Shown piece by piece: positions 2,759-28,960 of a stretch of DNA of 29,071 nucleotides. Source of the DNA: an uncultured Nitrospirota bacterium (lineage in GTDB: Bacteria > CG2-30-53-67 > CG2-30-70-394). Location of the stretch: NCBI GenBank assembly GCA_964599505.1, contig CAZRGD010000001.1, forward strand, positions 1 through 29,071. The letters are read 5' to 3'. Every line of letters starts with the position of its first letter. Positions within the stretch are counted from its first letter, which is position 1. The notes below the pieces were generated by a model. That model was not told the DNA's origin, searched no databases, and saw only the letters and a program-made list of their open reading frames with translations. The position numbers were made by a program, and so were the translations under genes.

Positions 2759-2833
2759 GTGGCGTTTTGAAGTGGTCCAAAATTGAGTCCTAACGCAGTT
2801 TCGGTACGCAATCGTATGTGGAAGGGATAAGCG

Positions 2834-3193: not shown

Positions 3194-3197
3194 TTCA

Positions 3198-3569: not shown

Positions 3570-3599
3570 TTGAAAAGGTCAATTTTAGGAGGCTGAACC

Positions 3600-3893: not shown

Positions 3894-3963
3894 GTTAGGT
3901 ATTTTCGGATTCAAGGCGCGAGGATCGTGGACAGGCACTTCATGAATCGTAATTTGTAGTAGC

Positions 3964-3979
3964 TGGCTCTAAGTTCGCA
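3964..3979 (+). promoter_or_regulatory. Possible sigma54-like motif upstream of dsrJ
   Basis: TGGCTC-TAAGT-TCGCA (GG-N10-GC) about 30 nt upstream of the dsrJ start, in an AT-rich spacer. Confidence 0.4.
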
Positions 3980-4010
3980 TTGTTGTTCGAAAACCTACGG
4001 GAGGCGCCAG

Positions 4011-4409: not shown

Positions 4410-4433
4410 GGCGGTACTACATCTGTGCATAAT

Positions 4434-4453
4434 CAGCCACGTGATCGTGGCTG
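4434..4453 (+). other. Perfect 8-bp hairpin 5' of dsrC
   Basis: CAGCCACG-TGAT-CGTGGCTG; CATCTG (4420-4425) / CAGATG (4465-4470) could extend the stem. Confidence 0.55.
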
Positions 4454-4496
4454 CCTCAATAAACCAGATGGTTAACCGTGCCCTAGGAGATTGAAC

Positions 4497-4832
4497 ATGG
4501 CCAGCATCGAAGTGAACGGGAAGCAGCTCGAGGTCGACGAGGAAGGTTACCTTACGAATCTTGAGGACTGGAACATGGACGTCGCGAACTTCCTCGCCGC
4601 GCAGGAGGGCGTCGACATGACCGACAACCACTGGGAGGTCGTGAACTTCCTCCGTGATTACTACGAGGAGTACAAGATTGCACCGATGATCCGTATCCTC
4701 ACCAAGGCGATTGGCAAAAAGCTTGGCGCCAACAAGGGCAATACCAAGTACCTCTACGAGCTCTACCCGGGTGGTCCGGCGAAGCAGGCGTGCAAGATCG
4801 CCGGTCTTCCGAAGCCGACCGGCTGCGTTTGA
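4497..4832 (+). CDS. dsrC: DsrC sulfur carrier (two-Cys type)
   Basis: DEEGYL, HWEVV, YLYELYPGGPAKQACKIAGLPKPTGCV with both Cys (C99 and C110, C-x10-C); AGGAGA RBS before ATG 4497. Confidence 0.96.
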   Translation: MASIEVNGKQLEVDEEGYLTNLEDWNMDVANFLAAQEGVDMTDNHWEVVNFLRDYYEEYKIAPMIRILTKAIGKKLGANKGNTKYLYELYPGGPAKQACKIAGLPKPTGCV

Positions 4833-4874
4833 TTCGGTGTGACACCATGCCTCACCGCATGATTTCTGCGGTGG

Positions 4875-4909
4875 CCTCCCCTTCGGAATTGCCCATTCCG
4901 AAGGGGAGG
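4875..4909 (+). terminator. Perfect 15-bp stem-loop between dsrC and dsrM (terminator or mRNA-stabilising element)
   Basis: CCTCCCCTTCGGAAT-TGCCC-ATTCCGAAGGGGAGG; no U-tract follows. Confidence 0.6.
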
Positions 4910-5000
4910 GCGAGGGTGTCTACGCTGGGAATACCCCCGCTGGATATGCAGGGTTGGGTAGTCGCGTAGGGCCCCACGGATACTCGCCAGAGAGGCCGAG

Positions 5001-5738
5001 ATGACGACATTGTCGTTGGTCTACATCACCCTCTACTACATCGCGTTTGCGATCTTTTTGGGTGGTTTTCTGTTCAAGATTTGGCGCTTCGCCAAGACCC
5101 CGGCGCCGCTGGTGGTTGTGGGTACGCCGGCGGCAAAGAGCGGGGCCGGCACGGTGGCGCGCGTCGCCTCGGATGCACTCCTTTTCCGGAGTCTCTTCCG
5201 GGGGAATAAGTGGATCTGGGTAGGGGCATACTGCTTCCACTTCGGGCTCCTTTTCCTGATCTTCCGGCATTTCCGATACTTCATCTGGCCCCTGCCCGCG
5301 TGGTACAGCCAGGTGGAGCAACTGGTGGGTGTGACCGGTGGGGTGATGGTGGTGATCGGTATCCTCTGGCTTCTCGGCCGGCGGTTCTTTCACGCCCGGA
5401 CTCGATATATTTCTGCCTTCTCCGACTATTTTGTCCTCTTCCTGTTGCTTGCGATCGCCTCGACCGGCTTGTTGATCAAGTTCCGTGTCCGGACCGACAT
5501 CATCGCGGTGAAGACCTTCATGCTGGGGCTCGCGAGGCTGCACCCACAGCCGGTGCCGGCCGATCCATGGTTCTTGCTGCACTTCTCGCTGGTGCTCGCC
5601 TTGCTGGTCTATTTCCCGTTCAGCAAGCTGATGCACGCCGGCGGGATCTTCTTCAGCCCGTCGCGGAACCAGATCGATTGGACCCGCAGTACCGAACGGC
5701 GGCACGTCTCTCCCTTCGAGAACACGAAGTCTGCGTAG
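5001..5738 (+). CDS. dsrM: DsrM membrane cytochrome b (NarI-like)
   Basis: Multiple TM helices, FHFGL...RHFRYF, HFSL...FPFSKLMHAGGIFFSP. Confidence 0.93.
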   Translation: MTTLSLVYITLYYIAFAIFLGGFLFKIWRFAKTPAPLVVVGTPAAKSGAGTVARVASDALLFRSLFRGNKWIWVGAYCFHFGLLFLIFRHFRYFIWPLPAWYSQVEQLVGVTGGVMVVIGILWLLGRRFFHARTRYISAFSDYFVLFLLLAIASTGLLIKFRVRTDIIAVKTFMLGLARLHPQPVPADPWFLLHFSLVLALLVYFPFSKLMHAGGIFFSPSRNQIDWTRSTERRHVSPFENTKSA

Positions 5739-5747
5739 GAGCGCCCG

Positions 5748-7247
5748 GTGGCTGACATCGTTACCCCCAAGCTCGATGGCAAGATTCGCATCCCTCTGAT
5801 GGAAGAGGGGGCTACTGCCCACTATCATATTCTGGAATCTTCGCCAGAGATCAACGAGGCGGTCGGTTATCCGACGGAGTTGGTGGATAACTGGCAAGAG
5901 AAGGCGATCGAGAAGTTCCGTGAGGTACTCGACACCAATAAATCGCTTCGCGTCTTCATGGATATCTGCGTGAAGTGCGGCTCTTGTACCGACAAGTGCC
6001 ACTACTTCATTGGCACCCACGATTCGCGCAATATGCCGGTGGCGCGCCAGGAGCTGATGCGCAAGGTGTACCGGCGCTACTTCACCCTCGGGGGCAAGCT
6101 CTTTCCGAAGCTGGTGGGGGCGGAGGATTTCACCAAGGAGGTCCTCGACGAGTGGTACACCTACTTCCACCAGTGCAGTCAATGCCGCCGATGTTCCGTC
6201 TTTTGTCCGTACGGCATCGATACGGCCGAGATCTCCATGGCGGCCCGCCTGATCATGAATCACATCGGGCTGGGGTCGAAGTACAGCAACGAGATCATCG
6301 CCAAGGTGTACAGTACGGGTAACAATCTTGGCATCCCGGCACCCGCCCTCGCAGGGACGATGGAGTTTCTTGAGGAGGATGTAAAAGAGGAAACGGGCGT
6401 CGATGTCCGCTATCCGATAGATGAGAAGGGGACTGAAGTTCTTCTCATTGCGCCGTCCGCGGACTTTTTCAGTGCGCCCCACGTCGATTCGTTGATTGGC
6501 TACGGTAAGGTCTTCCACGAGGCGGGGATTAGCTGGACGGTAAGCTCCTATGCCTCGGAGTTTGCCAACTTCGGGATGTTCGTGGGTGATTTCCACGCCA
6601 TGCGGAAAATCGCCCAGCGGGTCAAGGACGTGGCTCGAGAGTTCGGTGTCAAGCGCATCGTCGTCGGGGAGTGTGGCCACGCATGGCGCGTCGGCCACTC
6701 CTTCTGGAACACCCTCGTTGGGCCGTGGGACTTCCTCGACAGCCGCTATGTGGTGCCACAACACATCTGTGAGTTCACCCTCGATCTCATTAAGTCTGGT
6801 GGTTTGAAGCTCGACAAGTCAGCCAACGACGAGCGCATCGTCACCTTCCACGACTCGTGTAACGTCGCCCGTGCCTCCTCCATGGGCGGTTACGAGGGCG
6901 GCCAGTTCGAGGTGCCGCGTGAGCTGATCCGGTATACGTGCAACAACTTCGTGGAGATGGCCGAGGACACAATCAGAGAGAAGACCTACTGCTGCGGTGG
7001 TGGTGGCGGGTTGCTCACGGACGACCTTATGGAGCTTCGGGTCCAGGGGGTGTTACCGCGGGCACAGGCGCTTCATGCGGTGATGGAGAGTCACGGGGTG
7101 AATTACCTGGCCTTGATCTGCGCGATCTGCAAGGCTCAGTTCAACAAGGTCCTCCCGTACTACGATATCCCGATGGAGGTGGTCGGTGGCGTCCACCAAC
7201 TCGTCGGTGACGCCATCGTTCTCGGGGGGGCGAAGCACGAGGTCTAA
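5748..7247 (+). CDS. dsrK: DsrK Fe-S / CCG-domain heterodisulfide-reductase-like subunit
   Basis: CVKCGSCTDKC, CSQCRRCSVFCP, GECGH, FHDSC, YCCGGGGG, ICAIC. Confidence 0.95.
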   Translation: MADIVTPKLDGKIRIPLMEEGATAHYHILESSPEINEAVGYPTELVDNWQEKAIEKFREVLDTNKSLRVFMDICVKCGSCTDKCHYFIGTHDSRNMPVARQELMRKVYRRYFTLGGKLFPKLVGAEDFTKEVLDEWYTYFHQCSQCRRCSVFCPYGIDTAEISMAARLIMNHIGLGSKYSNEIIAKVYSTGNNLGIPAPALAGTMEFLEEDVKEETGVDVRYPIDEKGTEVLLIAPSADFFSAPHVDSLIGYGKVFHEAGISWTVSSYASEFANFGMFVGDFHAMRKIAQRVKDVAREFGVKRIVVGECGHAWRVGHSFWNTLVGPWDFLDSRYVVPQHICEFTLDLIKSGGLKLDKSANDERIVTFHDSCNVARASSMGGYEGGQFEVPRELIRYTCNNFVEMAEDTIREKTYCCGGGGGLLTDDLMELRVQGVLPRAQALHAVMESHGVNYLALICAICKAQFNKVLPYYDIPMEVVGGVHQLVGDAIVLGGAKHEV

Positions 7248-7273
7248 CCCCCCCCTTCGCCTGAGGTGCAGTC

Positions 7274-8083
7274 GTGAAACCATCGAAGGATCGGCTGCCC
7301 CCTGACGCCGGCCACGTCGGTACGGTCTATCTGGTTGGTGCGGGTCCGGGCGATCCTGAGCTCCTCACCCTGCGCGGCGCGAAGCTCCTCGCCGAGGCGG
7401 AGGTGGTCGTCTATGACGCCCTCGTGCACGAGGAGATGTTGCGCCTCGCACACCCTCATGCAGACCTGGTCTTCATGGGGAAGCGGGCCGGGTGCAAGTC
7501 GCCGACCCAACCGGAGATCAACGAGCGGCTGATCTCCCTCGGTCGCTCCGGTAAGATGGTGGTTCGCCTCAAGGGGGGGGATCCCTTCGTTTTCGGCCGC
7601 GGTGGTGAGGAGGTGACCGCCTTGTCCGCGGCGGGGATCCCGTGTGTGGTGATCCCAGGGGTCACGGCTGGGGTCGCGGTGCCGGCATCTCTCGGGATTC
7701 CGGTTACCCATCGCGGTACTGCAGGCTCGGTCGCATTCGTCACCGGCCACCCGGGCAAGGGGCTCCCCGATCCGGTGGCGTGGGGCAAGATTGTTCACGC
7801 CGTGGATACGCTGGTGGTCTATATGGGGATGACGCGCCTGCGCGACATCGTCGCGGCGATGCTCGAGGGAGGGGCGGATCCCGAGACGCCGGCAGCGGTG
7901 ATCGCCCATGGCACCACGGGCGCGCAGCGCCACGTGATTGCTCCCCTGGCGGAGCTGGCGGAGGCGGTGGAGCGCAAGGCGATCCCCACGCCGGCGATCA
8001 TCATCATTGGCAAGGTGGTGGCGGAGCGGGAGACCTTCACTACCCTCGCAACGGTCGCCCTACCCACCGGCGTGCTCGGTTGA
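7274..8083 (+). CDS. cobA: Uroporphyrinogen-III C-methyltransferase (CobA/SirA)
   Basis: VYLVGAGPGDPELLT, RLKGGDPFVFGRGGEE, PGVTA, VVYMG. Confidence 0.95.
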   Translation: MKPSKDRLPPDAGHVGTVYLVGAGPGDPELLTLRGAKLLAEAEVVVYDALVHEEMLRLAHPHADLVFMGKRAGCKSPTQPEINERLISLGRSGKMVVRLKGGDPFVFGRGGEEVTALSAAGIPCVVIPGVTAGVAVPASLGIPVTHRGTAGSVAFVTGHPGKGLPDPVAWGKIVHAVDTLVVYMGMTRLRDIVAAMLEGGADPETPAAVIAHGTTGAQRHVIAPLAELAEAVERKAIPTPAIIIIGKVVAERETFTTLATVALPTGVLG

Positions 8084-11203: not shown

Positions 11204-11641
11204 CTACTGCGTCCGGCGTTCGAGCGCCTCGCAGTAGGCGAGGGTCCGCTCAAGGCCGCCCGGGAGGCCGGCGACCTCCAGGAGCGCCTCGACTCGCTGG
11301 AGGAGGGAGAGCTTGTTCACCGGCTTGGTGAGAAAGTCGTCCACCCCCAGGTTCACCGCCCGCTCGCGGTCACCGGCGTCGTCGTAGGCGGTGAGCATGA
11401 TGACCGGTGGAACGTCCTCCGTACCGTGGATCGCTCGCAGGAGCTGGTAGCCGTCCATTCCGGGCATCCGGCCGTCGACAATCAGCAGGTCCAGGGGGGA
11501 GCCCGCCAAACGAATCAGCGCGGTATCGCCGCTGTCGGCGGTCTCCACCTGGTACCCGGCGCGGCCGAGGTAGGCGGCAAGCAGGGCCGCGTTCGCCTGG
11601 TTGTCCTCGACTACGAGGATGTGCTGGTCGGCCGGATCCAT
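11204..11641 (-). CDS. Single-domain response regulator (receiver)
   Basis: ILVVEDN, LIVDGRMPGMDG (phospho-Asp), IMLTA, FLTKP; AGGAG RBS before ATG 11641. Confidence 0.92.
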   Translation of the reverse strand: MDPADQHILVVEDNQANAALLAAYLGRAGYQVETADSGDTALIRLAGSPLDLLIVDGRMPGMDGYQLLRAIHGTEDVPPVIMLTAYDDAGDRERAVNLGVDDFLTKPVNKLSLLQRVEALLEVAGLPGGLERTLAYCEALERRTQ

Positions 11642-11762
11642 CACCCGTCTCCTCTCCATGCCGCGGAGACACCCTTGCCGCGGTTCCCCACCTCATCGGC
11701 GATTTGGAGCGGTGGCTTACCGCTAACCGACGATACCCGTAGCTCAGGTGGATGGCCCGATG

Positions 11763-11849
11763 GGAACACGAAGTCACGAAAGGGGGAAAACACGAAAAGC
11801 CTTGATGGAGCTTTTTCGTGCTTTTCAAGATTTCGTGTTTTCGTGTTCC
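11763..11849. repeat. CACGAA/TTCGTG palindromic intergenic element
   Basis: CACGAA at 11767, 11775, 11791; TTCGTG at 11815, 11832, 11840; outer arms GGAACACGAA / TTCGTGTTCC are perfect inverted repeats. Confidence 0.8.
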
Positions 11850-11906
11850 TGTTTTGCCGGGTTCCTTGAGCTTTGCTGAGGCGGGTACCGCCAAGAGAGG
11901 GAGGCG

Positions 11907-12611
11907 CTATTGAGGGCGCGCGGCACGCTCGGCATGGCCCGAGGTGCCGAAGCGGCGAACGAGCTCCTCCAGCACCGCCTCGGGGGCGACGTCGCGGCTG
12001 GCGAGGGCGACGACCATGTGAAAGAGGAGATCGGCCGCCTCGTGGACCACGGCGGCGTCGTCCTCACCGGCAACGGCCGCGGCGAGCTCCCCAGCCTCCT
12101 CGGTGAGCTTCGCACCGATGTGCTCCGCGCCTCCGGCAAGGAGCTCGGCAACGTACGAGGTCTCGGGATCGCCACCGCGCCGCTGGCCGGCGACCTGCGC
12201 CAGGGCGGGGAGGATGTTGGCGGTGGTGGGGGCGCCGGCGTAGACCGCCTCCGGGTCGAAGAGCGCCTCGCCCACCTCGTGCGCGGTGTCGCCGTCGACC
12301 TGATTGAAGAAGCAGCTCCGCCTTCCCGTGTGGCAGGCGGCGACCGCCTGGTCGACCTGAAAGAGGAGGGTGTCGGCGTCGCAGTCGTAGGCGATCTTGC
12401 GCACCGTCTGCAGGTGGCCCGACGACTCCCCCTTCTTCCACATCTGCTGGCGCGAGCGAGAGAAGTAGTGGGCAAAGCCGCTCTCCTGGGTCAGGCGCAC
12501 CGCCTCGCGGTTGCAGTAGGCGAGCATCAGGACCTCGCCGGTGGCGGCGTCCTGGGCGATCGCCGGCAGGAGACCGCGGTCGTCGTACTTCAAATCATCG
12601 ATCCAACTCAT
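11907..12611 (-). CDS. hisIE: Bifunctional phosphoribosyl-AMP cyclohydrolase / phosphoribosyl-ATP pyrophosphatase
   Basis: [43 protein letters not shown]. Confidence 0.96.
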
Positions 12612-14425: not shown

Positions 14426-14704
14426 ATGGAATCCCAGAACAACGCCCCCGAACCCGAGAAGAACGATTCGTTCAGTGAGCGGCTGACCGCCCTGCGCGAG
14501 GAGATCGCCATCCTCCCCGACGACAAGCGTGGTGAGTTGGAAGAGCTCGCCGACGCCACCGAGCGGCTCCACCAGCAGATGCGCAAGGCGACGACTCAGG
14601 CCCTGGCGCAGCTCGGTAACCTACAGCTCGGGATCAAGTACCTCCTCTTTGACCTGGAGGCGACCAAGCGGGAGAACGACGAGCTGCGTGGATCCAAGAA
14701 GTAG
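14426..14704 (+). CDS. Small coiled-coil hypothetical protein (92 aa)
   Basis: GGAG RBS, helical amphipathic sequence, C-terminal LGIKYLLFDLEATKREN. Confidence 0.8.
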   Translation: MESQNNAPEPEKNDSFSERLTALREEIAILPDDKRGELEELADATERLHQQMRKATTQALAQLGNLQLGIKYLLFDLEATKRENDELRGSKK

Positions 14705-14709
14705 GTTGC

Positions 14710-14871
14710 CTAGCGGCGATCGCGGCGTAGGGCGCCCACGAGCCGCAGATTGGGCTGGTGGACGATTCGCTCGACGATTGCGGTGAGCAACCGTTCGTCA
14801 TCGGTGAATCGCGACACGGCGGCGACCAACTCCAGCAAGGTGACTTCGATCCTTCTCTTCGTGGCAACCAT
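14710..14871 (-). CDS. Small hypothetical protein (53 aa), below the ORF-track cutoff
   Basis: MVATKRRIEVTLLELVAAVSRFTDDERLLTAIVERIVHQPNLRLVGALRRDRR; AGGTGG RBS; stop 5 nt from the convergent neighbour's stop. Confidence 0.65.
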   Translation of the reverse strand: MVATKRRIEVTLLELVAAVSRFTDDERLLTAIVERIVHQPNLRLVGALRRDRR

Positions 14872-14928
14872 GGCACCACCTACCGATTGGTTGACTCCCT
14901 GACCCCCTTTTCGTATCCGAAAGCGCCC

Positions 14929-16242
14929 GTGATAAACCCATTCTCTCGCCCTGGACGTTTTGCCTCACTGCGGGTCGCTGCGGCGGCGGCGACCGTCGTG
15001 ACCCTCCTCTTCGGTGGGGTCGCGGTGGCCTTCGGCGGTCTCGTTGCCGCCGTTGTGGCGGCCGTCTGTGCCGGGGTGACGGTCACCCTCGTCGCCGTCG
15101 ATCGCCGGCTCGTCTCTCCCCTCCTGGAGGAGCTCCGAGCCGCCCACTACGACGCCGCGGTGGCGCGCGAGGCGGTGGCCCTGGCACGGGTGGCCGCCGC
15201 CAGTCTCAGCCAGGGGTGCGATACCCTCGCAACCCTCGCGACTCACCATGGCCGCCTCCTCAACCCGATCCGGCGTAGTGAGTCGCCGGGGAAGAAGGGC
15301 GACAAGGGAGATTCTGCTCTCACCCCTCCCGCCCTCACCCGTGAGCTCCTGGGGCATGCCACCCCGGCGGCCAAGAACCACCGCTTTCTCGATGTCACTC
15401 CCCTTCTGGAGAATGTCGCCAAACGCCTCGGTCGACGGATTACTCCCGCCGTGCGTATCGATCTCCACCTCGAGCCCGGCCTTCCGGGGATCGACGGCAG
15501 CCCGGCACAGATTCGCCAGGTGATCCTCAGCCTCGCCCTGCGGGGCATCGCGGCGATGCCGCACGGCGGGACGCTGGAGCTCTCCAGCCGTCTCCTCGAT
15601 TTGCCGCAGGATAACGGCGAGGGGCTGTTGCAGGGACGCTATGTGGAGGTCGCGGTCGCCGACTCGGGCGATGCGGCACAGCCCGGGGAGGAGGGCGTTG
15701 CCGGCCACGGTCTGCTCGCCACTCCCCTCACCATCGCCACCGCGCGTGGTGTGGTAGCGGCCCACGGCGGTCGTCTCGACCTCTTCGCCGAGGCAGGGGA
15801 GGGGACCACGGTCACCCTCCTCTTCCCGGTCAGTGACGTCTCCGGGGAGGAAGCGGCATCTCCGCCCCCCAGTCGGCGAGGGTCCATCCTCGTCGTCGAC
15901 GACGATGTGGATGTGCGCAACCTTATCGACAACATCCTTACCCGCGGCGGCTATCACGTGGTGACCGTCGCCTCGGGTGAGGCAGGTTTGGATGTATGCC
16001 GGCACAACGCCGGCGAGATCGATCTGATCCTCGTGGACGTCGACCTTCCAGAACGCGAAGGGCGATCCCTCCTCCGTGAGCTCACCCGCGTGGCGGGCAA
16101 TGCGCGGGTCCTCGTCTGCCGCGGCCCCGGCGCTGGCGGCCTGCCGGTGGAGCTCGAGGGGATCGCGGGGATCCTTCCGAAGCCGTTTCGCATCCAGGAG
16201 ATGACCGACACCATCCGGCGCCTCCTCGACGAGCGGGCGTAG
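14929..16242 (+). CDS. Degenerate membrane hybrid histidine-kinase-like protein (HisKA-HATPase-REC architecture, likely pseudokinase)
   Basis: Two N-terminal TM helices; LTRELL, QIRQVILSLALRGIAAMP, VADSG, HGGRL, GEGTTVTLLFP; receiver ILVVDDD...DLILVDV...LPKPF. Start uncertain; GTG 14929 chosen because the track's 14758 start overlaps the 53-aa ORF. Confidence 0.8.
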   Translation: MINPFSRPGRFASLRVAAAAATVVTLLFGGVAVAFGGLVAAVVAAVCAGVTVTLVAVDRRLVSPLLEELRAAHYDAAVAREAVALARVAAASLSQGCDTLATLATHHGRLLNPIRRSESPGKKGDKGDSALTPPALTRELLGHATPAAKNHRFLDVTPLLENVAKRLGRRITPAVRIDLHLEPGLPGIDGSPAQIRQVILSLALRGIAAMPHGGTLELSSRLLDLPQDNGEGLLQGRYVEVAVADSGDAAQPGEEGVAGHGLLATPLTIATARGVVAAHGGRLDLFAEAGEGTTVTLLFPVSDVSGEEAASPPPSRRGSILVVDDDVDVRNLIDNILTRGGYHVVTVASGEAGLDVCRHNAGEIDLILVDVDLPEREGRSLLRELTRVAGNARVLVCRGPGAGGLPVELEGIAGILPKPFRIQEMTDTIRRLLDERA

Positions 16243-17252: not shown

Positions 17253-17717
17253 CTACCGCCTCTCCCCCATGGCCGCCTCCGCCAGGTGGTACTGACCCGC
17301 CGCCTCGGAGTGGGTGTCGCCGCGATCCTCGGCGATCATCTCGCAGGTTCGCGCCATGCGGGCGTAGAGGGCGGCGCGCCACGCGGGGTTGCCCATCTCC
17401 GCCGCCACCTCCGGCGGCGCGGTGGCGGCGGCGGCCGCGGCGGCGACGAAGTGGCCCGCCTGGCTGCGCCACTCGGTGTCGTGGCCGCACTGGGTGAAGC
17501 TCTCTGCCGCTGCCGCCTTCGCCTCGTGGTGGGCGGTGGCGAGGAGCGGCGCTCCGATCTCCGCCTGGGCCGCCACCTCCACCGCCTGGCGTACCCTCGG
17601 GTCGTCGGAGAGGGCGAGGACCGCAGCCGCAAACCGGCTCGCCAGGCGGCGGCATGTCGTCGGGGAGAGATGGTCGAGGGCGGCTCGGAGCTCGTGGTCG
17701 TTGGTGATCGGGGTCAT
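17253..17717 (-). CDS. Hypothetical all-helical protein, last gene of the hydrogenase operon
   Basis: AGGAG RBS, 18 nt after the hynL stop; Ala-rich helices with W..QAGHFVA and AW.AA..ARMAR..E segments. Confidence 0.75.
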   Translation of the reverse strand: MTPITNDHELRAALDHLSPTTCRRLASRFAAAVLALSDDPRVRQAVEVAAQAEIGAPLLATAHHEAKAAAAESFTQCGHDTEWRSQAGHFVAAAAAAATAPPEVAAEMGNPAWRAALYARMARTCEMIAEDRGDTHSEAAGQYHLAEAAMGERR

Positions 17718-17735
17718 CGTCGCGCTCCTCTCGCC

Positions 17736-19466
17736 TCATTGAATCCGTACCTGCACCAGCTCCCCCTGGTCCGGGTCGCTCACGTGGACGGCGCAGGCGA
17801 TGCACGGGTCGAAGGAGTGGATCGTGCGGAGGATCTCGATGGGCCGCTTCGGGTCCGCCAGACGGTGGCCGGCGAGGGCCGCCTCGTACGGTCCTGGCTG
17901 GCCCTTCGCATCCCGCGGGCCTCCGTTCCAGGTGGAGGGGACCACCGCCTGATAGTTGGCGATCCGGCCGCCCTCGATGGAGACCCAGTGGGCGAGGGCG
18001 CCGCGTGGCGCCTCCATGAAGCCGACCCCGCGGCAGCGATCGGGCCAGGTGGCGGGCTCCCACCGGTCGCCGTTGAAGGTGGTGAGGTCGCCCGCCTTGA
18101 TGTTGGCCAGCAGCCGCTCATACCAGCCGGTCATGGCGTCGGCGAAGAGCTTCGTCTCCAGGCCACGGGCGGCGGTGCGGCCGAGGGTGGAGAAGAGGGC
18201 CTCTTGCGGCAGGTCGAGCTTGGCGAGCGTCGTGTCCACCAACTCCTGTGCCGCCGGGTTGCCGGTGGCGTAGAGCATCAGGATTCGTGCCAGGGGTCCG
18301 ACCTCCATGGGGCGACCGCGCCAGCGCGGTGACTTGATCCACGAGTAGGACTGCGCCACATCGAGGTGCTTGTAGGGCGGCTCGGGACCGGTGTAGTGGA
18401 GGGCGGTCTCGCCGTCATACGGGTGGAGCGGCTCTTCCTTGCCCGCAGCGTAGTCGTACCACGAGTGGGCGATGAGCTCCTGGATCTGGGCCGGGTCGCA
18501 GAGGTTGAGCGGCTCGACCGTGGCGAGGTCGCGGTCGACGATCACCCCGCCGGGGACGAGGTAGCTCGCCGGGTCGCCGATCCCCTTTTCCGGGAAGTCG
18601 CCGTAGCAGAGGAAATTGCCCACCCCCTCCCCCTGGCGCGCCCAATCCTTGTAATAGGAGGCGATGGCCAGCAGGTCCGGGAGGTAGACCTGGTCGACGA
18701 AGGTGCGCATCGACGCGATCACCTCGCCCACCTGTGCCAGCCCCACCATGTCCAGGGCGGTCCCTGCCTGGCCGCCGCTGTCGACCGAGATGGCACACGG
18801 CACCCCGCCGACGACGAAGCTCGGGTGCGGGTTCTTGCCCCCGAAGATGGTGTGCAGCTTGACCACGTCACGCTGCCAGGTGAGCGCCTCCAGGTAATGG
18901 GCCAGGGCCATGAGGTTCGCCTCCGGCGGCAGCTTGTACGCCGGGTGGCCCCAGTAGCCGTGGGCGAAGATGCCGAGCTGCCCCGATTCGACGAAGGCGG
19001 CGAGGCGCGAACGCACCTCGGCGAAGTAGCCCGGCGACGACTTCGGGTAGGCGGAGATCGACTGGGCGAGGGCCGAGGTCTGCCGTGGGTCCGCCTTCAG
19101 GGCGGAGACCACGTCGACCCAGTCGAGGGCGTGGAGGTGGTAGAAGTGCATCACGTGGTCGTGGACGTGCTGGGCCGCGGACATCAGGTTGCGGATCAGC
19201 TCGGCGTTCGGCGGCACGGTGATCTCCAGGGCGTTCTCCACCGCGCGTACTGAACAGAGGGCGTGGACCAGGGTGCAGACGCCGCAGATCCGCTGGGTGT
19301 AGGCCCACGCATCGCGCGGATCCTGCCCCTTCAGGATGATCTCGATGCCGCGGACCATCGTCCCGGAGGAGTACGCCTGGCGGATCACCTCCCCGTCCAT
19401 CTCCGCCTCGATGCGCAGGTGGCCCTCGATGCGGGTGATCGGGTCGACGACGATTCGCTCAGCCAT
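17736..19466 (-). CDS. hynL: [NiFe] hydrogenase large subunit, group 1 (Isp/1e-type by context)
   Basis: DPITRIEGH, L1 QRICGVCTLVH, L2 SFDPCIACAVH followed by a 15-aa cleavable tail. Confidence 0.96.
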   Translation of the reverse strand: MAERIVVDPITRIEGHLRIEAEMDGEVIRQAYSSGTMVRGIEIILKGQDPRDAWAYTQRICGVCTLVHALCSVRAVENALEITVPPNAELIRNLMSAAQHVHDHVMHFYHLHALDWVDVVSALKADPRQTSALAQSISAYPKSSPGYFAEVRSRLAAFVESGQLGIFAHGYWGHPAYKLPPEANLMALAHYLEALTWQRDVVKLHTIFGGKNPHPSFVVGGVPCAISVDSGGQAGTALDMVGLAQVGEVIASMRTFVDQVYLPDLLAIASYYKDWARQGEGVGNFLCYGDFPEKGIGDPASYLVPGGVIVDRDLATVEPLNLCDPAQIQELIAHSWYDYAAGKEEPLHPYDGETALHYTGPEPPYKHLDVAQSYSWIKSPRWRGRPMEVGPLARILMLYATGNPAAQELVDTTLAKLDLPQEALFSTLGRTAARGLETKLFADAMTGWYERLLANIKAGDLTTFNGDRWEPATWPDRCRGVGFMEAPRGALAHWVSIEGGRIANYQAVVPSTWNGGPRDAKGQPGPYEAALAGHRLADPKRPIEILRTIHSFDPCIACAVHVSDPDQGELVQVRIQ

Positions 19467-20733
19467 GCTGTGCCTCCGCCTCCTCCAGGTGGTCGGCGAT
19501 CATCTCCGTGAGTCCCACCAGCTCCACGTCCATCTGGTAGTGGTCGATCCCCTCTTCCATGACGACGCGGCAGTTGGCGCAGGCGGTGACCACGATCTTC
19601 GCGCCGGTCGTCTCGATCTGGCCGCGCTTCTTGCCAAAGGCGGTGAGGCGCAACGCCTCGGCGCGCCCCGTGGCGCTCACCCCGCCGCCGCCGCCGCAGC
19701 ACCAGTTGTAGACCCCGTGGTCGTGCATCTCGCGGACGTCGCTCGCCACCAAGTTGAGGAGGCGGCCCGGCGCCTCGGTGACCCCGCCACGCCGGACCAC
19801 CTGGCACGGGTCGTGGAAGGTGACCGGCAGGTCGAACGTCGACTCGACCTTCAGCCTCCCTGCGGCACGCAGCAGGTCGAGGAGCTCGAGGATGTGGAGG
19901 ACCTCGAAGCGGTACGGCCTGCCGATCAGCTCCGGCCCCTCCCAGCGCAGGGCCATGTAGGCGTGGCCGCACTCGGGGCTGACCACCGCTTTGACGCCGA
20001 TGCGCTCGGCGGCGGTCACGGTGCGCATGACGATCTCCCGGGCGAGGTCGGAGCAGCCGATCTGGATGCCGCTGTTGGTCGCCTCGAAGGCGTCGCTCGC
20101 CAGGGTCCACGACACCCCCGCGTGGTGGAAGATGCGCGCCAGGGCGCCGAGCATCTCCGGGGTGTTGACGATCTCCATGGAGGAGAGCAGCACCATGTAG
20201 TCGACCCCCTCCTGGTCCACCGGGATGGTGAGGCCGGTTGCCTCCTCCTGGTGGCGGATCTGTGCTTCCAGGGTCGCGAGCTTCACCCCCATGGGGCTGC
20301 CGAGCTCGATCGCCCGCCGGGTCGCCCCGATGAGCCCCGGCGGGGCGTGGCCGGCGGCGGCCATCCCCTCGCGCATCCGGCGGATCATGTAGACGAGGTC
20401 GTTGCCCACCGGGCAGACGAGGGAGCAGCGACCGCACAGGGTGCACGAGTCGTAGACCAGCTCGCTCCATGCGCCGAGCTCCGCGTCCGTCACCGGCTTC
20501 GACAGGCCGAGGGCGGCGGCGGCGCGGCCGAGGAGGGTGTACTCACGCCACCACAGCCTTTTCAGCGGCTGGAGCTTGTGGATCGGGGTGTACTTTGGCT
20601 CCTTGGTCTCGGTGTAGAAGAGGCACGCCTCGGCGCACATGCCGCAGCGCACGCAGGTGGCGAAGAATCCCGCGGTGTCTGCGTCGAGGACCTCGCGAAA
20701 GCGGTCCAGGCCGCGTTCCAGTGAGGCGCTCAT
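19459..20733 (-). CDS. isp2: Isp2, DsrK/HdrD-like Fe-S/CCG protein
   Basis: CVRCGMCAEAC, CTLCGRCSLVCP, PECGH, HDPC, WCCGGGGG, TACANC; ATG 20733 overlaps the isp1 stop (ATGA). Confidence 0.9.
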   Translation of the reverse strand: MSASLERGLDRFREVLDADTAGFFATCVRCGMCAEACLFYTETKEPKYTPIHKLQPLKRLWWREYTLLGRAAAALGLSKPVTDAELGAWSELVYDSCTLCGRCSLVCPVGNDLVYMIRRMREGMAAAGHAPPGLIGATRRAIELGSPMGVKLATLEAQIRHQEEATGLTIPVDQEGVDYMVLLSSMEIVNTPEMLGALARIFHHAGVSWTLASDAFEATNSGIQIGCSDLAREIVMRTVTAAERIGVKAVVSPECGHAYMALRWEGPELIGRPYRFEVLHILELLDLLRAAGRLKVESTFDLPVTFHDPCQVVRRGGVTEAPGRLLNLVASDVREMHDHGVYNWCCGGGGGVSATGRAEALRLTAFGKKRGQIETTGAKIVVTACANCRVVMEEGIDHYQMDVELVGLTEMIADHLEEAEAQHG

Positions 20734-21389
20734 GAGGCCACCCCGGTGCGTCCGAAGTGCTCGCCGTTCATCCACCGGGACGGGAAGAGGGTGACGAAGT
20801 GGATGAGCTTGGTGAACGGCATCAAGACCATCAGCACCTCCACGCTCGCCAGGTGCAGCGCCATCATGGTGGTGTAGGGAAGGAGCAAGTGGTGGAAACA
20901 GAGGTAGCCGGTGAGCACCGGCGCGAGGGTGAGCCCCCACGCGAGGTAGTCCTCCGCCACCGACAGGAACCGCTTCACCGGATCCATCACCCGGCTGGCG
21001 AGCATCACCCCGAGGGCGAGGAGGGTGACCACCGCCATCGCGTCCACCAGGGGGGTGGGCAGCGCCGGCCAGGAGAAGCCGACGGCGCGGCGCAGGACCT
21101 CGATGTGCGGCACAAAGAAAAAGAAGGTGACGATGATCCCGATGTGGAAGGTGTAGCCCGACAGATAGCTCACCATCGACTCGTGCTCTGCCGAGGGCTT
21201 CGAGCGGCGCAGGATCGTCCACCACCCGGAGGCACCTTTCCGGTGGCGCAGGGGCGCCAGGGGACGGTCGCGGCCGAGGGAGTAGATCTCGATGAGCCGC
21301 CACACCAACCCGAGGCAGAAGAGGCCTAAGGCGATGTGGAAACCGGGGCCACGGACCCAGGCGAGAAAGGCGATCGAGGCGGCGCTCAT
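20730..21389 (-). CDS. isp1: Isp1, DsrM/NarI-like membrane cytochrome b
   Basis: About five TM helices, FHIG...PHI, LHLASVE...MPFTKLIH. Confidence 0.9.
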   Translation of the reverse strand: MSAASIAFLAWVRGPGFHIALGLFCLGLVWRLIEIYSLGRDRPLAPLRHRKGASGWWTILRRSKPSAEHESMVSYLSGYTFHIGIIVTFFFFVPHIEVLRRAVGFSWPALPTPLVDAMAVVTLLALGVMLASRVMDPVKRFLSVAEDYLAWGLTLAPVLTGYLCFHHLLLPYTTMMALHLASVEVLMVLMPFTKLIHFVTLFPSRWMNGEHFGRTGVAS

Positions 21390-22486
21390 GTCGGTTCCTC
21401 CTTTGGTCGCTCCAAATCGTCGACGGTGAGCGGCTTATGCGCCGCGCGTGCCTTGGCGCGCTTGCGCCGGTTGGCCACCGCCATCGCCCCACCCACGGCG
21501 ACACCGGCGGCGGCGGCGATCGTCGCGGTGGGGGTGAGCGGCCCGAAGGGAACCGAGACCGCCCGGTAGAAGCCGCCGCCGTCCCAGAAGTCGGGCTGCG
21601 AGCAGCCGAGGCAGCCGTGACCCGACTGGATCGGGAAGCTGGTGCCGTCGTTCCACTTGGTGGTGGCGCAGGCGTTGTAGGTCGTCGGACCCTTGCAGCC
21701 GAGCTTGTAGAGGCACCACCCCTTGCGTGCCCCCTCGTCGTCGAAGGTGTCGGCAAACAGACCGCGGTCGTAGAAGGGGCGGCGGTAGCAGCGGTCGTGG
21801 ATCGTCTCGCCGTAGAACGCCTTCGGCCGGTGGAGGGGGTCGAGCTCGGGCAGGCGGCCGAAGGTGAGGAAGTGGGCGAGGGTTCCGACGATCACCGCCG
21901 GGATCGGCGGGCAGCCGGGGAGGGTCACCAGCGGTCGGTCTTTGACGATCTCCGAGACCGGCACCGCGCCGGTGGGGTTGGGCGTCGCCCCGGGGAGGCC
22001 GCCGAAGGCGGCGCACGATCCCATGGCGATCACCGCCGCCGCGCCCGCCGCCACCTCCTGGAGCATCGCCAGGTTGGAGACCCCTCCGATGGTGGAGTAG
22101 CCCGGGTGGCCCACCGGCAAGGAGCCATCGACGATCAGCAGGTAGTGGCCCCGGTTTGCCGCCATCGCCTCGTGCCTGGCCTCCTCCGCCGCCTCGCCGG
22201 CGGCCGCCTGGAGGGTGTGGTGGTAGTCGAGGGAGACCATGTCGAAGAGGAGCGACTCCAGGGTCGGGGCGTGGGCGCGGGTGAGGGACTCGGTGCAGCC
22301 GGTGCACTCCTGGAAGGAGAGCCAGATCACCGACGGCCGCGCCGTCCGCTCCAGGGCCCGGGCGATCGCCCTCCCCGAGCCCGGCGGCAGGGCGAGGGAG
22401 GCGGCAATGGCAGCGCAGGTCCGCAGGAAGGTGCGGCGGCTCATGCCGCGACCACGCAGCGCCTCGTAGACCGTCACCTTCGCCAT
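21386..22486 (-). CDS. hynS: [NiFe] hydrogenase small subunit with Tat signal and C-terminal membrane anchor
   Basis: SRRTFL twin-arginine motif, QECTGC, GSCAAFGG, PGCPP, IHDRC, LGCKGP; GGAGGT RBS before ATG 22486. Confidence 0.95.
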   Translation of the reverse strand: MAKVTVYEALRGRGMSRRTFLRTCAAIAASLALPPGSGRAIARALERTARPSVIWLSFQECTGCTESLTRAHAPTLESLLFDMVSLDYHHTLQAAAGEAAEEARHEAMAANRGHYLLIVDGSLPVGHPGYSTIGGVSNLAMLQEVAAGAAAVIAMGSCAAFGGLPGATPNPTGAVPVSEIVKDRPLVTLPGCPPIPAVIVGTLAHFLTFGRLPELDPLHRPKAFYGETIHDRCYRRPFYDRGLFADTFDDEGARKGWCLYKLGCKGPTTYNACATTKWNDGTSFPIQSGHGCLGCSQPDFWDGGGFYRAVSVPFGPLTPTATIAAAAGVAVGGAMAVANRRKRAKARAAHKPLTVDDLERPKEEPT

Positions 22487-22499
22487 CACCACCTCCGGA

Positions 22500-23033
22500 T
22501 TACGGTGCAGTCTCCCGGTTGTCCAACCCTGGCGAACTCTCCACCAACCCACTACTGTCCTCCCCATGGCTCCAGCGCTTTACCACCTTCATCGCGAGGC
22601 GGGCGGCGATCGGTACCGCTGCCGCCACCTGCGGTGTGAGCCGGGTTCCCCACTCCAGCGAGGCGGGCTCGATCGTGATCAAGGCGCGCTCCACCGGCGG
22701 CTTCCAGCCGGCGAGGCGGGCAAGGTCGAGGAGATCGGCGAGGCCGATCTCATGGGCGGTGCGGCCTCGGCAGGCGAGCATCCGGTCCATCGCCTCCCCC
22801 TCCAGGAGTCGCACGCTCCCGGGCTCATCGCCCATCCGTCCGGCATCGATGACGAGAAGCCGCCGGCAGCAGGTGAGGGAGGAGATGAAGGAGAGGTCCA
22901 GTGCCCCCGCTTCGTGATAGACGACGCCGTCCTCTGGGGGATGGTCGCGACGCAGCATGGCGAGGCAGACGATCCCGGCACCGTCATCGCTCATCAGGGG
23001 GTTACCGATGCCGAGGATCAGGATGTCCTGCAT
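22500..23033 (-). CDS. hupD: Hydrogenase maturation endopeptidase (HyaD/HupD family)
   Basis: ILGIGNPLMSDDGAG, LVIDAG, AHEIGL; GAGGAG RBS before ATG 23033. Confidence 0.9.
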   Translation of the reverse strand: MQDILILGIGNPLMSDDGAGIVCLAMLRRDHPPEDGVVYHEAGALDLSFISSLTCCRRLLVIDAGRMGDEPGSVRLLEGEAMDRMLACRGRTAHEIGLADLLDLARLAGWKPPVERALITIEPASLEWGTRLTPQVAAAVPIAARLAMKVVKRWSHGEDSSGLVESSPGLDNRETAP

Positions 23034-23473: not shown

Positions 23474-23697
23474 CGCAGAGAGGAGCGGGCGTCATGCCGG
23501 CTCGGGGCACTACGGCGACCGCTCGGACGATGGGTAGGAGCCGGCTCCTGCCGGCGATCCCAGCCCAGGGGGCTGGCGGGGCCTGCGGCCCCGTTTCGCG
23601 AGCGGGAGCTCGCTCCTACCGGGGTGGCGGGGGCTGGTTGCGATGCCCGGGAGGGCCGGTCACCTCTCTGCGTCTCTGCCCCTCTGCGTCTCTGCGT
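23474..23697. repeat. Nested intergenic element: GTAG-type REP doublet inside CGCAGAG/CTCTGCG arms
   Basis: REP1 GGTAGGAGCCGGCTCCTGCCGGCGA (23533-23557); inverted REP2 (23596-23620) reads GGTAGGAGCGAGCTCCCGCTCGCGA. Outer CGCAGAGAGG (23474-23483) complements CCTCTCTGCG (23663-23672), within four 8-bp CTCTGC(G/C)(T/C) units (23666-23697). Confidence 0.8.
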
Positions 23698-26293: not shown

Positions 26294-27068
26294 GCCATGC
26301 CTCCAGTCGCGCCGCGTCGTAGGTCACCTCCACCAGACAGAGCCCCTCGGGACGGGCGGTGGGGCCGGCGGCAGCACGGTCACGCGCCGAGATGATCGGG
26401 GCGAGGGCGCCGCTTGGCAAGCGGCCTCGTCCTACCTCCAGGAGGGTGCCGGCGATCGCCCGCACCATGTGCTTCAAAAAACCAGTGCCGGCGATCTCCA
26501 GGTGGAGCTCGTCGCCTACCGGGCTGAAGCGCGCCCCCACCACCTCGCGCACGGTGGTGGTGGTGTCGGCGTCGGAGGCGCAGAAGCTGGCGAAGTCGTG
26601 GGTCCCTACCAGGGGCGCCACCGCCGCGGCCATCGCCGCCACGTCCAGGGGGCGAGATTCCCAAAAGACGAACGGCCGGCGGAAGAGGGGGCGTAGCGGC
26701 CGGTTGAGGATCCGGTAGCGGTAGAGCTTTCCGCAGGCGGCGAAGCGGGCGTGGAAGTCGGGCTCCACCGGCTCCAACTTGCGGCAGAGGATGTCCGGCG
26801 GCAGGAGGGCGTTGATCCCGCGCAGGAGCGCCGTCGCTGCGAACGGCCGCTCCAGGTCGAAGTGGGCCGGGAGGTGGTTCGCGTGGACCCCGGTGTCGGT
26901 GCGCGAGGCGGCGTGGATCCGCACCGGCCGGTCGCACAGGCGCGACAGCGCCGCCTCCACCGCCCCCTGCACGGTCACCTGATTGGGCTGCACCTGCCAG
27001 CCGGCGTAGGCGGTGCCCTCGAAGGCGAGGTGCAGCAACAGGCGCTGGCCGGCGACGAGGTCGCTCAC
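26271..27068 (-). CDS. truA: tRNA pseudouridine(38-40) synthase TruA
   Basis: FEGTAYAGWQ, SRTDTGVHA (catalytic Asp), GTHDFASF, FLKHMVRAIAG; GTG 27068 overlaps the ecfT stop. Confidence 0.95.
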   Translation of the reverse strand: MSDLVAGQRLLLHLAFEGTAYAGWQVQPNQVTVQGAVEAALSRLCDRPVRIHAASRTDTGVHANHLPAHFDLERPFAATALLRGINALLPPDILCRKLEPVEPDFHARFAACGKLYRYRILNRPLRPLFRRPFVFWESRPLDVAAMAAAVAPLVGTHDFASFCASDADTTTTVREVVGARFSPVGDELHLEIAGTGFLKHMVRAIAGTLLEVGRGRLPSGALAPIISARDRAAAGPTARPEGLCLVEVTYDAARLEAWHADLGDQ

Positions 27069-27796
27069 AGCGCGCCTTTCTGGAGGAGCCAGCCGGTGGC
27101 GACCACGGCGGCGACGGCGACGGCGAAGAGGCCATCGGCGGCGGTGAGGCGCAGGGCGGCGGCCGCCGTCGTCGGGTCGGTGAGCGTGCCGGCCTCGGCG
27201 GCCGTGGCACGGGCGGCGATTTCCGCCTCGCCCGCGGTGATCAGCCGCCGCAGGCGGCCGTCGAGATCGAGCGGCCCCTCGCGCCAGGTGTGCAGGTGGG
27301 CAGCGAACCATGGCAGAAAGCCGAGGGCGAGGGAGGCGACCACCACTGCGTGGTGCAGGCGATGGCCCGGGGCGGCGAGGCGACCGGCGAGGCGGGCGAG
27401 GCCCGCCACCAGCGCCTCGGGCTCCACCGCCCGGTAGAGGGCATGGGCGATCCACACCGCCCCGATCAGGCGCACCGCGGTGAGCAGCGCGAGGTGCACC
27501 CCCTCGCGGGTGATCCACAGGTGCAGGGGTGCCACTCCGATCAGGACGTGGCCCGGGGTCAGGACCAGGTTGAGGGTCACGGTGATCAGCAGCAGCGCCC
27601 GGAGGAAGCGGAGGATGGCGAGGAAGGGGCGGCCGGGGAGGTGGTGGAGGAGCCCGTAGGCGACCCCTGCGGCGGCGAGGACGGCGAGGGCGGCGGGTCG
27701 CTCCCAGCGGAAGAGGGGGAGGAGGAGGGCGAGGGCGAAGAGGAGGTGGGTGCGCGGGTCGAGCGGCGACGGGCGGCGATCGAGGGCGGGCAGCAT
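27065..27796 (-). CDS. EcfT/CbiQ-like energy-coupling-factor transmembrane protein (divergent)
   Basis: LDPRT N-terminal motif, ITREG...R...PEAL helix pattern, adjacency to truA. Confidence 0.65.
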   Translation of the reverse strand: MLPALDRRPSPLDPRTHLLFALALLLPLFRWERPAALAVLAAAGVAYGLLHHLPGRPFLAILRFLRALLLITVTLNLVLTPGHVLIGVAPLHLWITREGVHLALLTAVRLIGAVWIAHALYRAVEPEALVAGLARLAGRLAAPGHRLHHAVVVASLALGFLPWFAAHLHTWREGPLDLDGRLRRLITAGEAEIAARATAAEAGTLTDPTTAAAALRLTAADGLFAVAVAAVVATGWLLQKGAL

Positions 27797-27800
27797 GACT

Positions 27801-28102
27801 ACAGAAGGCAGAAGGCAGAAGGCGGTAGGCAGTGGGAGGCGAGGGCGAAGTATGGCGTGTCCTGCGCCGTTCCCAAGGCCCCCACCATAATCGTCGGTTC
27901 CAAATCGGGATCGGGATCGAAATCGGCTGTACCGTCGCCAGAGACCGCATGCTCTCGCGAAGCGGGTAGCCTCTGTTGCCAAGATGGCTGAGCGGAGCCA
28001 GCGCTCGTCGAACCCGATAGCGATCCCGATCCCGATAGCGATGGCCCCAACGTTCCCCCCCGGGCCAGGACTGCCTACTGCCTACTGCCCTCTGCCCTCT
28101 GT
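27801..28102. repeat. Nested inverted short-period repeat element between bioD and ecfT
   Basis: Outer 7-bp-unit arms 27801-27833 and 28070-28102 (29/33 complementary); inner 6-bp-unit arms 27904-27926 and 28014-28036 (21/23 complementary). Confidence 0.85.
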
Positions 28103-28105
28103 CTA

Positions 28106-28828
28106 CTACCTCAGCGGTTCCCCCGACAGGGCGTAGGCCGCCTGATAGAGGGCGGCGCCGTTGAACCGACGGGCGAGCCGCTCCCAGGTGGCGGGGTCGG
28201 TGGGCGCCGTTACTTCCGGGAGGCGGGCCACGAGGGGGACGCGACACAGGGCCACCAAGTCCTCCACCGCGTGTACCACCGCCGGTTCTGCCTCGGTCCC
28301 GACCACCTGGTTTACCACCATCCCCACCACCGCCACGTGGGCGGCGCGCAGGGCGCGGAGGGTGAGCCAGGTGTGGTTGAGGGTACCGAGGCGCGGGGTG
28401 GTCACCACCAGGCAGGGGAGGTGGAGGGTGGCGAGCCAGTCCAGGAGGGTGGCCTTAGGGGTGAGGGGGACGCCGAGGCCGCCGATCCCCTCGACCACCA
28501 CGAAGGGGTGGTGGAGCCGCAGGCGGGTCACGAGAGCGGTGAGCGCCGCGACATCCACCTCCTGCCCCGCCTCGCGCGCCGCGCGCAGGGGGGCAGCGGG
28601 GGTCGGGAAGCGTAGGGCGCATGCCTCCTCGGCGGTCAGCTCACCGTCCGCGGCGGCGCGCAGGCGGGCGGTGTCCTCGCCCTCGCTTCCCACGACCCCG
28701 GTCTCCACCGGCTTGCACGCCACCGCCATCACATGGGCCTGGCGCAAGGCGCGGGTCACGGCGCACGCCACCACCGTCTTGCCGACGCCGGTGTCCGTCC
28801 CGGTGATGAAGAGGCCGCTGCCGAGCAT
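28106..28828 (-). CDS. bioD: Dethiobiotin synthase
   Basis: FITGTDTGVGKT, CKPVETG, VVEGIGG, LGTLNHT. Confidence 0.95.
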   Translation of the reverse strand: MLGSGLFITGTDTGVGKTVVACAVTRALRQAHVMAVACKPVETGVVGSEGEDTARLRAAADGELTAEEACALRFPTPAAPLRAAREAGQEVDVAALTALVTRLRLHHPFVVVEGIGGLGVPLTPKATLLDWLATLHLPCLVVTTPRLGTLNHTWLTLRALRAAHVAVVGMVVNQVVGTEAEPAVVHAVEDLVALCRVPLVARLPEVTAPTDPATWERLARRFNGAALYQAAYALSGEPLR

Positions 28829-28878
28829 GGGGGGAGTATCGCCGATCTTCCTCGATCAAGCTGCCATGGGGACAAAAC

Positions 28879-28960
28879 CACGAAGACCACGAAGTTCACG
28901 AAGGGGAAAACGGCAGTCGGCAGTCGCCGTAGGGTGGCGCCAAGCGAAGCGCGGCGTACC
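28879..28960. repeat. Composite repeat stack: 3x CACGAAG (period 9), 2x GGCAGTC, GTAG-type REP-like hairpin
   Basis: CACGAAG at 28879, 28888, 28897; GGCAGTC at 28912, 28919; GTAGGGTGGCGCC-AAGCGAAGCGC-GGCGTACC at 28929-28960. Confidence 0.7.

Follow-up and report, generated by a model that had tools for sequence, protein, structure and literature searches.

A gene-less, two-layer palindromic repeat insertion, polymorphic among relatives, at the bioD-ecfT junction of an uncultured Nitrospirota bacterium

The window, a stretch of 29,071 nt (contig CAZRGD010000001.1) from an uncultured Nitrospirota bacterium, carries the genes bioD and ecfT in the same orientation on the minus strand, separated by a spacer that is filled almost to its edges by a nested palindrome (Table 1). 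An inverted-repeat search finds outer arms of 33 nt each, complementary at 29 of 33 positions (88%), and inner arms of 23 nt (27904-27926 and 28014-28036), complementary at 21 of 23 (91%) and separated by 87 nt. None of the three ORFs inside the element matched an NCBIfam family, and the repeat search and family comparison together confirm the first-pass annotation of this DNA, made from the letters alone, which had reported these arms around a core with no intact gene. Both pairs of arms are built of tandem repeats: Tandem Repeats Finder reports arrays with a period of 7 nt at 27802-27832 and 28070-28111 and others with a period of 6 nt at 27904-27919 and 28009-28042. The bioD stop codon (TAG) occupies 28106-28108, and the ecfT start at the ATG at 27796 is confirmed by a relative in which the junction is empty (L253), because the same ATG stands there 2 nt past the bioD stop. 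With both codons fixed, the palindrome lies 3 nt beyond the stop and 4 nt short of the start, exactly where it had first been placed.

Table 1. Features of the bioD-ecfT junction, in the order in which they would be transcribed; positions are those of the window.
Feature	Position	Strand	Basis
bioD (dethiobiotin synthase)	28106..28828	-	ORF; Pfam AAA_26/CbiA; homologues named dethiobiotin synthetase
Outer arm, 5' in transcript; about five heptamers (A/G)(G/A)CAG(A/T)(A/G)	28070..28102	-	Inverted-repeat search, Tandem Repeats Finder
27-nt linker between outer and inner 5' arms	28043..28069	-	Alignment with L254 902-1050
Inner arm, 5' in transcript; ATCGGG / ATCGCT hexamers, TCGAC at end	28009..28042	-	Inverted repeats, Tandem Repeats Finder, likeness to L129
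87-nt core without a gene; one 43-nt block identical in orthologous L252	27927..28013	-	Repeat, ORF-family and L252 comparison
Inner arm, 3' in transcript; CGATCC hexamers	27904..27926	-	Inverted-repeat search, Tandem Repeats Finder
70-nt linker joining the 3' inner arm to the 3' outer arm; a side hairpin of its own at minimum energy	27834..27903	-	Predicted fold
Outer arm, 3' in transcript; CTGCC(T/C)(T/A) heptamers	27801..27833	-	Inverted-repeat search, Tandem Repeats Finder
Inner dispersed repeat unit (approximate): hexamer arms, core and short flanks	27885..28056		Depth, homology to L254
Right copy of short direct repeat (G)TAG at the junction	27799..27802	-	Window compared with L253 and L252
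ecfT (CbiQ-family transmembrane component of ECF transporter)	27065..27796	-	PF02361; start from empty allele

The heptamer periodicity continues past the bioD stop codon, up to 28111, and the end of bioD, GCAGTAG, is itself one heptamer unit, the array being in register with the stop. Allowing up to 2 mismatches, the window has 12 occurrences of GGCAGAAGGCAG where 3.75 are expected; 8 of the 12 fall inside the two outer arms, so the motif is enriched in the window only because of this element. Scans of the element for sigma-70 promoters and intrinsic terminators found none. The element is a gene-less, two-layer palindromic repeat insertion in a bioD-ecfT junction that was originally 2 nt long. 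Its first layer is a hairpin with tandem GGCAG-type heptamer arms that begins in register with the bioD stop; its second, lying in the loop of the first, is a dispersed repeat of about 155-170 nt with tandem ATCGGG hexamer arms. An integron attC site was set aside for want of a GTTRRRY core and of a nearby integrase; so were a part of a retron or DGR, as the window encodes no reverse transcriptase, and an intrinsic terminator, as there is no U tract.

Relatives whose BioD proteins are 76-85% identical to that of the window form an allelic series at this junction. Four metagenome contigs from the window's own strain have an identical element. In L253 the junction is empty (...CAGTAG TC ATG..., a 2-nt spacer; junction sequence TAGTCATG), and a contig from a hot-springs metagenome run (X6) is also without the element, position 27782 being joined to 28128 with 45 letters between. 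L252 has the same composite with 3.5 heptamers rather than 5, fewer 5' hexamers, one extra 3' hexamer and a core about 90% identical. Two other relatives are differently filled: after the bioD stop come eight (L247) or about 18-20 (L254) copies of GGACAGC, then an unrelated stretch of about 150 nt and degenerate inverse GCTGNNN heptamers. The spacers of L246 and L255 are short (83 and 78 nt) and contain a few heptamers of GGACAGC or GCTGNNN type, and that of L248 is 281 nt long and array-free. The first-pass annotation had proposed a search for empty, filled and cargo-bearing alleles; empty, filled and differently filled ones were found, but no allele examined at this site contains a gene.

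A bioD tree places the filled L252 next to the empty L253 as its sister, their bioD DNA being 91% identical, with the window on a separate branch; the difference between the sisters points to a recent gain or loss. A direct repeat (AG, TAG or GTAG) flanks the insertion, with left copies at 28103-28109, and is present once in the empty allele (CAGTAG|TCATG); as it is only 2-4 nt long and overlaps the arm end, it is at most a candidate target-site duplication. The element is a lineage-specific insertion that is polymorphic in presence. The GGACAGC array of L247 and L254 is a hypervariable micro-repeat: these two strains from the same sample differ at the junction (L247 1178-1393, L254 3457-3763) mainly in the number of its copies.

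Other sites in the window and its relatives also carry tandem arrays. A second tandem-repeat palindrome (11763-11850), in which CACGAA(A/G)-type repeats of 8-9 nt face TTTCGTG repeats across a 9-nt loop, sits between hisIE (11907-12611, minus strand) and a response-regulator gene (11204-11659, minus strand). Upstream of bioD, three copies of ACCACGAAG are followed by two of CGGCAGT (28877-28926); at the corresponding place L247 (377-401) keeps 2.8 copies of CTTCGTGCC and L254 (2616-2645) has 4.3 copies of AGTAGAA instead, which suggests that the divergent promoter region of bioD and an acylphosphatase gene is also a site of variable arrays, or possibly an operator. Upstream of hypD (23665-23697) stand four copies of the octamer TCTCTGCG, the reverse complement of CGCAGAGA, which is close to the outer-arm unit GGCAGAG; the orthologous spacer of L246 (16314-16402) holds an inverted pair of four CGCAGAGG and 2.6 CTGCGCCT. 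Between surE and hypD the window's strain has an RHH/PemK toxin-antitoxin pair (L001 4563-5143) and L246 a DUF433/PIN-like pair (14561-15156), a toxin-antitoxin module swapped at a fixed site. An extra AAA_14/DUF4143 ATPase gene lies between ecfT and truA in L246 (11673-12860) and L247 (2229-3416) and is missing from the window's strain. The host itself appears from its genes to be a sulfur- and hydrogen-metabolising bacterium of hydrothermal-vent and hot-spring mats: the window encodes DsrC, DsrMK-like proteins, a sirohaem synthase and methylase, and a group-1-like NiFe hydrogenase (409-8083 and 17253-22567) at 67% G+C. Sample Ga0257019 is described in the literature as marine hydrothermal-vent iron mats.

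The inner layer of the element is also found away from this junction. In the source metagenome (run X1), contig depth is 13.9 over the flanks, about 290 (some 20 times the genome's) over the hexamer arms and about 59 (some 4 times) over the core, with loose ends at 27885 and 28042. Several contigs in the same run carry other copies at a depth of 13-14, equal to the genome's own, and some hold both hexamer arms around a different core. A copy at a second locus of L254 (902-1050), between two convergent genes, is 76% identical over 156 nt that span the arms, the core and 14 nt of the 5' linker; these inner 14 nt of the 27-nt linker (GGAACGTTGGGGCC) already belong to the dispersed unit. The outer heptamer arms have no surplus depth in X1, so spread is seen for the inner unit only. 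Short-read assemblies break within the element, with L004 and L005 (SRR5189949) overlapping by 30 nt at the 3' hexamer arm and the L252 contig terminating in the 3' linker, which is consistent with arms that are repeated elsewhere. Scans of genomes for four tandem GGCAGNN units and of metagenomes for ATCGGG arrays returned no second copy of the core among the matches listed.

These alleles and copies bear on an explanation that involves no transposition, in which the arrays expand by slippage from the stop-codon seed GCAGTAG and template switching within the quasi-palindrome copies one arm into the other, so that the nested structure is home-grown. The arrays do start exactly at GCAGTAG at the end of bioD in the window, L252, L254, L247 and L255, and close relatives differ in copy number (8 against about 18-20 GGACAGC in L247 and L254, 5 against 3.5 heptamers in the window and L252). 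The unpaired arrays of other relatives at this site, which fold no better than usual (z between 0 and -1.4), indicate in addition that arrays can arise or persist without a palindrome, and many arrays in other genomes, among the matches listed, are likewise unpaired. Local growth is harder to reconcile, however, with an inner unit that recurs, core included, at a second locus in a relative and at about 4-fold depth in the source metagenome, or with a whole composite common to two non-sister lineages, one of which has an empty sister. We regard it as unlikely to be the full explanation of the element.

Both strands of the 310-nt spacer are predicted to fold far more stably than shuffled sequences. 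The minimum free energy is -172.3 kcal/mol on the minus, transcribed strand (z -8.72) and -159.9 kcal/mol on the plus strand (z -7.77), and none of 100 shuffles was as good in either case, which answers the first-pass proposal to fold both strands. In this fold the stop codon of bioD and the start codon of ecfT lie together at the base of a single stem, and the structure can thus loop out, as had been supposed. A further suggestion, that two of the four outer-arm mismatches become G-U pairs in the transcript and hint at selection on RNA or single-stranded DNA folding, fares less well. The minus strand does have two mismatches that are G-U, and the plus strand has one, the remaining mismatch being U-U; this 2:1 split favours neither strand. 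Among three copies of the inner unit a consensus fold shows consistent pairing in the arms only, with 12 of 44 predicted pairs broken and 3 compensatory changes. Rfam has no match for the element at the gathering score and none at E<=5, and metatranscriptome runs from the same samples gave zero reads and zero contigs on the locus. Selection on RNA folding is not supported here, and we find no evidence of a dedicated regulatory RNA role.

The element could nevertheless be maintained for what it does: it might serve as a signal for processing or stability between the two cistrons, insulate or couple their translation, or act as a G-quadruplex regulator that tunes ecfT relative to bioD. Such a role would fit the very stable fold, which is 12 kcal/mol better on the transcribed strand and has 10 G-U pairs there against 5, and the G-quadruplexes that repeats of GGGNATC type from Xanthomonas and Nostoc, most of them transcribed, form in vitro (PMC4692102). 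It would also fit the similarity between the window and L252, which is 88.6% over the element, one 43-nt block being identical, compared with 84% over bioD DNA and 74% at bioD third codon positions. Recent spread or gene conversion among copies, however, explains this conservation equally well; one close relative manages with a spacer of 2 nt, and the spacers of others are unrelated; and the element lacks a strand bias in its mismatches, conserved core pairs, a match to an Rfam family and a promoter or terminator motif. We consider a selected function at this junction distinctly improbable.

Arrays of these kinds are widespread. The GGCAGNN and ATCGGG scans each returned at least 120 loci, the organism's own genome not being among the matches listed, and among those matches GGCAGNN arrays occur in Cyanobacteria, Acidobacteriota, Planctomycetota, Gemmatimonadota, Chloroflexota, Armatimonadota and Bacteroidota. 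The majority of the arrays in the matches listed are unpaired, a situation that the first-pass annotation had counted against its own reading if joined to a lack of polymorphism or processing; the element at bioD-ecfT is nonetheless polymorphic. A repeat-agnostic search of the listed matches turned up at least some 50 pairs of tandem arrays, with units of 6-9 nt, that stand inverted at short range. Of the 52 pairs inspected, 49 lie between genes, and roughly 25 come within 12 nt of a stop codon, often on both sides. Nested pairs of two different units are found among the matches listed in L121, L105, L024 and L045. The one in L121 (2691-3139, an Acidobacteriota MAG) has GGCAG-type outer arms of 4 and 12 units, AAGGCAA inner arms and a gene-less core of about 240 nt; it folds with a z of -8.3 and adjoins stop codons at both ends. 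In the short-range pairs of the listed matches (loci L006-L245) the G-rich arm lies 5' in a ratio of about 24 to 1 overall; the polarity is seen on both strands, the ratio being about 15:0 among heptamers of GGCAG type and 9:1 among ATCGGG hexamers. Stop codons within GGCAGTA units could cause the polarity of the heptamers, and leave that of the hexamers unexplained. Larger intervals between like arrays, among the matches listed, hold mostly ordinary genes (ATP synthase, ruvAC, miaB, argBD, rpoN), which suggests that these are simply arrays in successive spacers.

A few arrays do accompany a recurrent gene. Six small array-adjacent genes, at five of the listed loci, encode TIGR02436 four-helix-bundle proteins: those of L015 and L089 lie between GGCAG-type heptamer arms, and those of L129, L187 (two genes) and L234 adjoin ATCGGG hexamer arrays. 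The L129 arms and the window's inner arm have in common the motif ATCGCTATCGGGATCG followed by TCGAC. The statement in the first-pass annotation that such arms flank small four-helix-bundle or GxxExxY genes elsewhere is thus half right, since both arm types flank TIGR02436 genes, but a search for the G..E..Y motif in 491 ORFs near arrays among the matches listed found no GxxExxY ORF, and about 98% of the array loci in those matches are without TIGR02436 cargo. The notion that the element is a cassette emptied in place, a TIGR02436 or GxxExxY gene having once stood between the arms and since decayed to a remnant, can draw on the company that both arm types keep and on the motif common to the L129 arms, but it is very improbable: when the copies in the window, L252 and L254 were translated in all six frames, a TIGR02436 profile found no match (best E 0.2), the interior is a separate dispersed repeat rather than gene debris, no allele examined at the junction has a gene, and GxxExxY ORFs stand near no listed array. 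An ORF-less relative of such cassettes fits the core better than an emptied one.

The explanation that we favour, with a probability of roughly 0.6, is that the element is a non-autonomous, layered palindromic insertion that is gained, lost and exchanged as DNA, with arms that drift by slippage, and that folds out of the mRNA. The higher identity of the element than of bioD DNA between the window and L252 also speaks for this reading. At the DNA level it would enter by insertion and leave by precise loss, probably through slipped pairing of the short direct repeats, which the hairpin would bring together; no transposase or other mobilising enzyme was seen within the 29-kb window. Alternatively, the pattern of presence and absence could reflect homologous exchange between strains, the allele being swapped by recombination, rather than insertion and excision. 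Replication slippage may let the copy number of the arms drift, and hairpin-templated repair may keep them complementary. At the RNA level we infer that the element is co-transcribed with its neighbours and folds into a single long stem (-172 kcal/mol, predicted) that would set the bioD stop and the ecfT start no more than 7 unpaired nucleotides apart, and this re-juxtaposition may be why the insertion is tolerated. On the mRNA it might loop out passively or serve as a substrate of RNase III, by analogy with 23S intervening sequences and Correia elements. The element behaves as an ORF-less, MITE-like counterpart of the repeat-armed TIGR02436 cassettes found elsewhere, and explaining it needs no dedicated function for bioD or ecfT.

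A broader reading is more speculative, and we think it unlikely to prove correct as a whole: stop-codon-anchored tandem-repeat hairpins in Cyanobacteria, Acidobacteriota, Planctomycetota, Chloroflexota, Bacteroidota and the vent bacterium of the window might form one layered class, with gene-bearing members that are cassettes of the 23S intervening-sequence type and ORF-less forms that have spread into operon junctions. The gene-bearing cassettes would encode Avd-like four-helix-bundle proteins, and the nested ORF-less forms could invade operon junctions since the stem that they form in RNA takes them functionally out of the message, whether by loop-out or by RNase III excision. The polarity of the arms (G-rich arm 5' in 24 of the 25 short-range pairs listed) might then reflect the way in which they are made. 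If this reading were true, the elements would amount to a bacterial counterpart of insertions that can be spliced out of mRNA. If re-juxtaposition by the stem or RNase III trimming explains how they are tolerated, it would account for the pile-up of such hairpins exactly at gene ends and offer a simple, testable model of the way in which genes that are tightly coupled withstand large insertions. The bioD-ecfT locus provides an allelic series (empty, filled and differently filled) for repeats that are usually recorded merely as 'simple sequence repeats', and it links three separate literatures: stop-codon heptamer repeats, heptamer-stemmed 23S intervening sequences with four-helix-bundle ORFs, and MITE- or REP-like hairpins. 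What makes it of interest is mainly the pattern across phyla and its clean allelic series, rather than any function at bioD-ecfT. There is also a practical effect, in that such elements break short-read assemblies and can mislead gene callers.

The nearest published parallels to the arrays are the GGGNATC heptamers of Xanthomonas and Nostoc, which in Xanthomonas include 70-75 convergent inverted pairs (Rehm et al., 2015; PMC4692102) and favour spacers between co-oriented genes, within 50 nt of a stop codon or overlapping it, the majority being transcribed (PMC4692102); TAACTGA heptamer arrays and STRR repeats are known from cyanobacteria (MacGregor, 2015; PMC4679880). Like the Xanthomonas and Nostoc pairs, the element at bioD-ecfT consists of tandem 7-nt intergenic units at or over a stop codon, arranged as a convergent pair that can form a stem-loop, and its inner hexamer GGGATC is GGGNATC minus the N, a 6-nt version. 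The outer unit GGCAGNN, however, does not match the GGGNATC consensus and is probably not prone to form G-quadruplexes, and the element nests two repeat types around a dispersed core; nested arrays, alleles with and without the repeats, and an association with cargo genes are absent from the published heptamer work (PMC4692102; PMC4679880).

A second parallel is the 23S intervening sequence of Coxiella burnetii, in which GACAGAT heptamers precede an S23p ORF and RNase III makes its 5' cut at the first repeat (PMC4990558). Tandem heptamers lie in the long terminal stem of each (GACAGAT in Coxiella, GACAGAG or GGCAGAG in the window), and both loop out of the host transcript, as a prediction in the present case; unlike the intervening sequence, the element lies in an mRNA spacer rather than in rRNA, has no S23p/TIGR02436 ORF and contains an extra inner layer.

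In other respects the element resembles MITEs, REPINs and BIMEs (PMC2649163; PMC3116915): it is small, gene-less and intergenic, with a short flanking direct repeat and an inner unit in multiple copies. Like a MITE it has terminal inverted repeats (29/33 outer, 21/23 inner), and multiple dispersed copies are found for the inner unit only (the second locus in L254, and 4- to 20-fold depth in X1). Members of these families are known to be co-transcribed with their neighbours, to yield hairpin RNA that RNase III targets and to occur in nested or mosaic arrangements (PMC2649163; PMC3116915), and RNase III binds or cleaves Correia elements (PMC2649163). The differences are that the arms here, instead of being unique inverted repeats, consist of tandem micro-repeats whose number varies, that no cognate transposase (IS or RAYT) was identified in the 29-kb window, and that what looks like the target is a stop codon, not TA or a REP loop. 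A REP or REPIN proper was rejected, because although GTAG is present in the heptamers and at the junction, the variable tandem arms contain no unique REP palindrome of about 25-40 nt. Set beside the published repeats, the element is a combination of known ingredients, nested and ORF-less, at an operon junction. Paired, nested tandem-repeat hairpins that abut stop codons recur across phyla. Bacteria were already known to carry selfish or unstable hairpin repeats between genes, and the element between bioD and ecfT is a variant of these.
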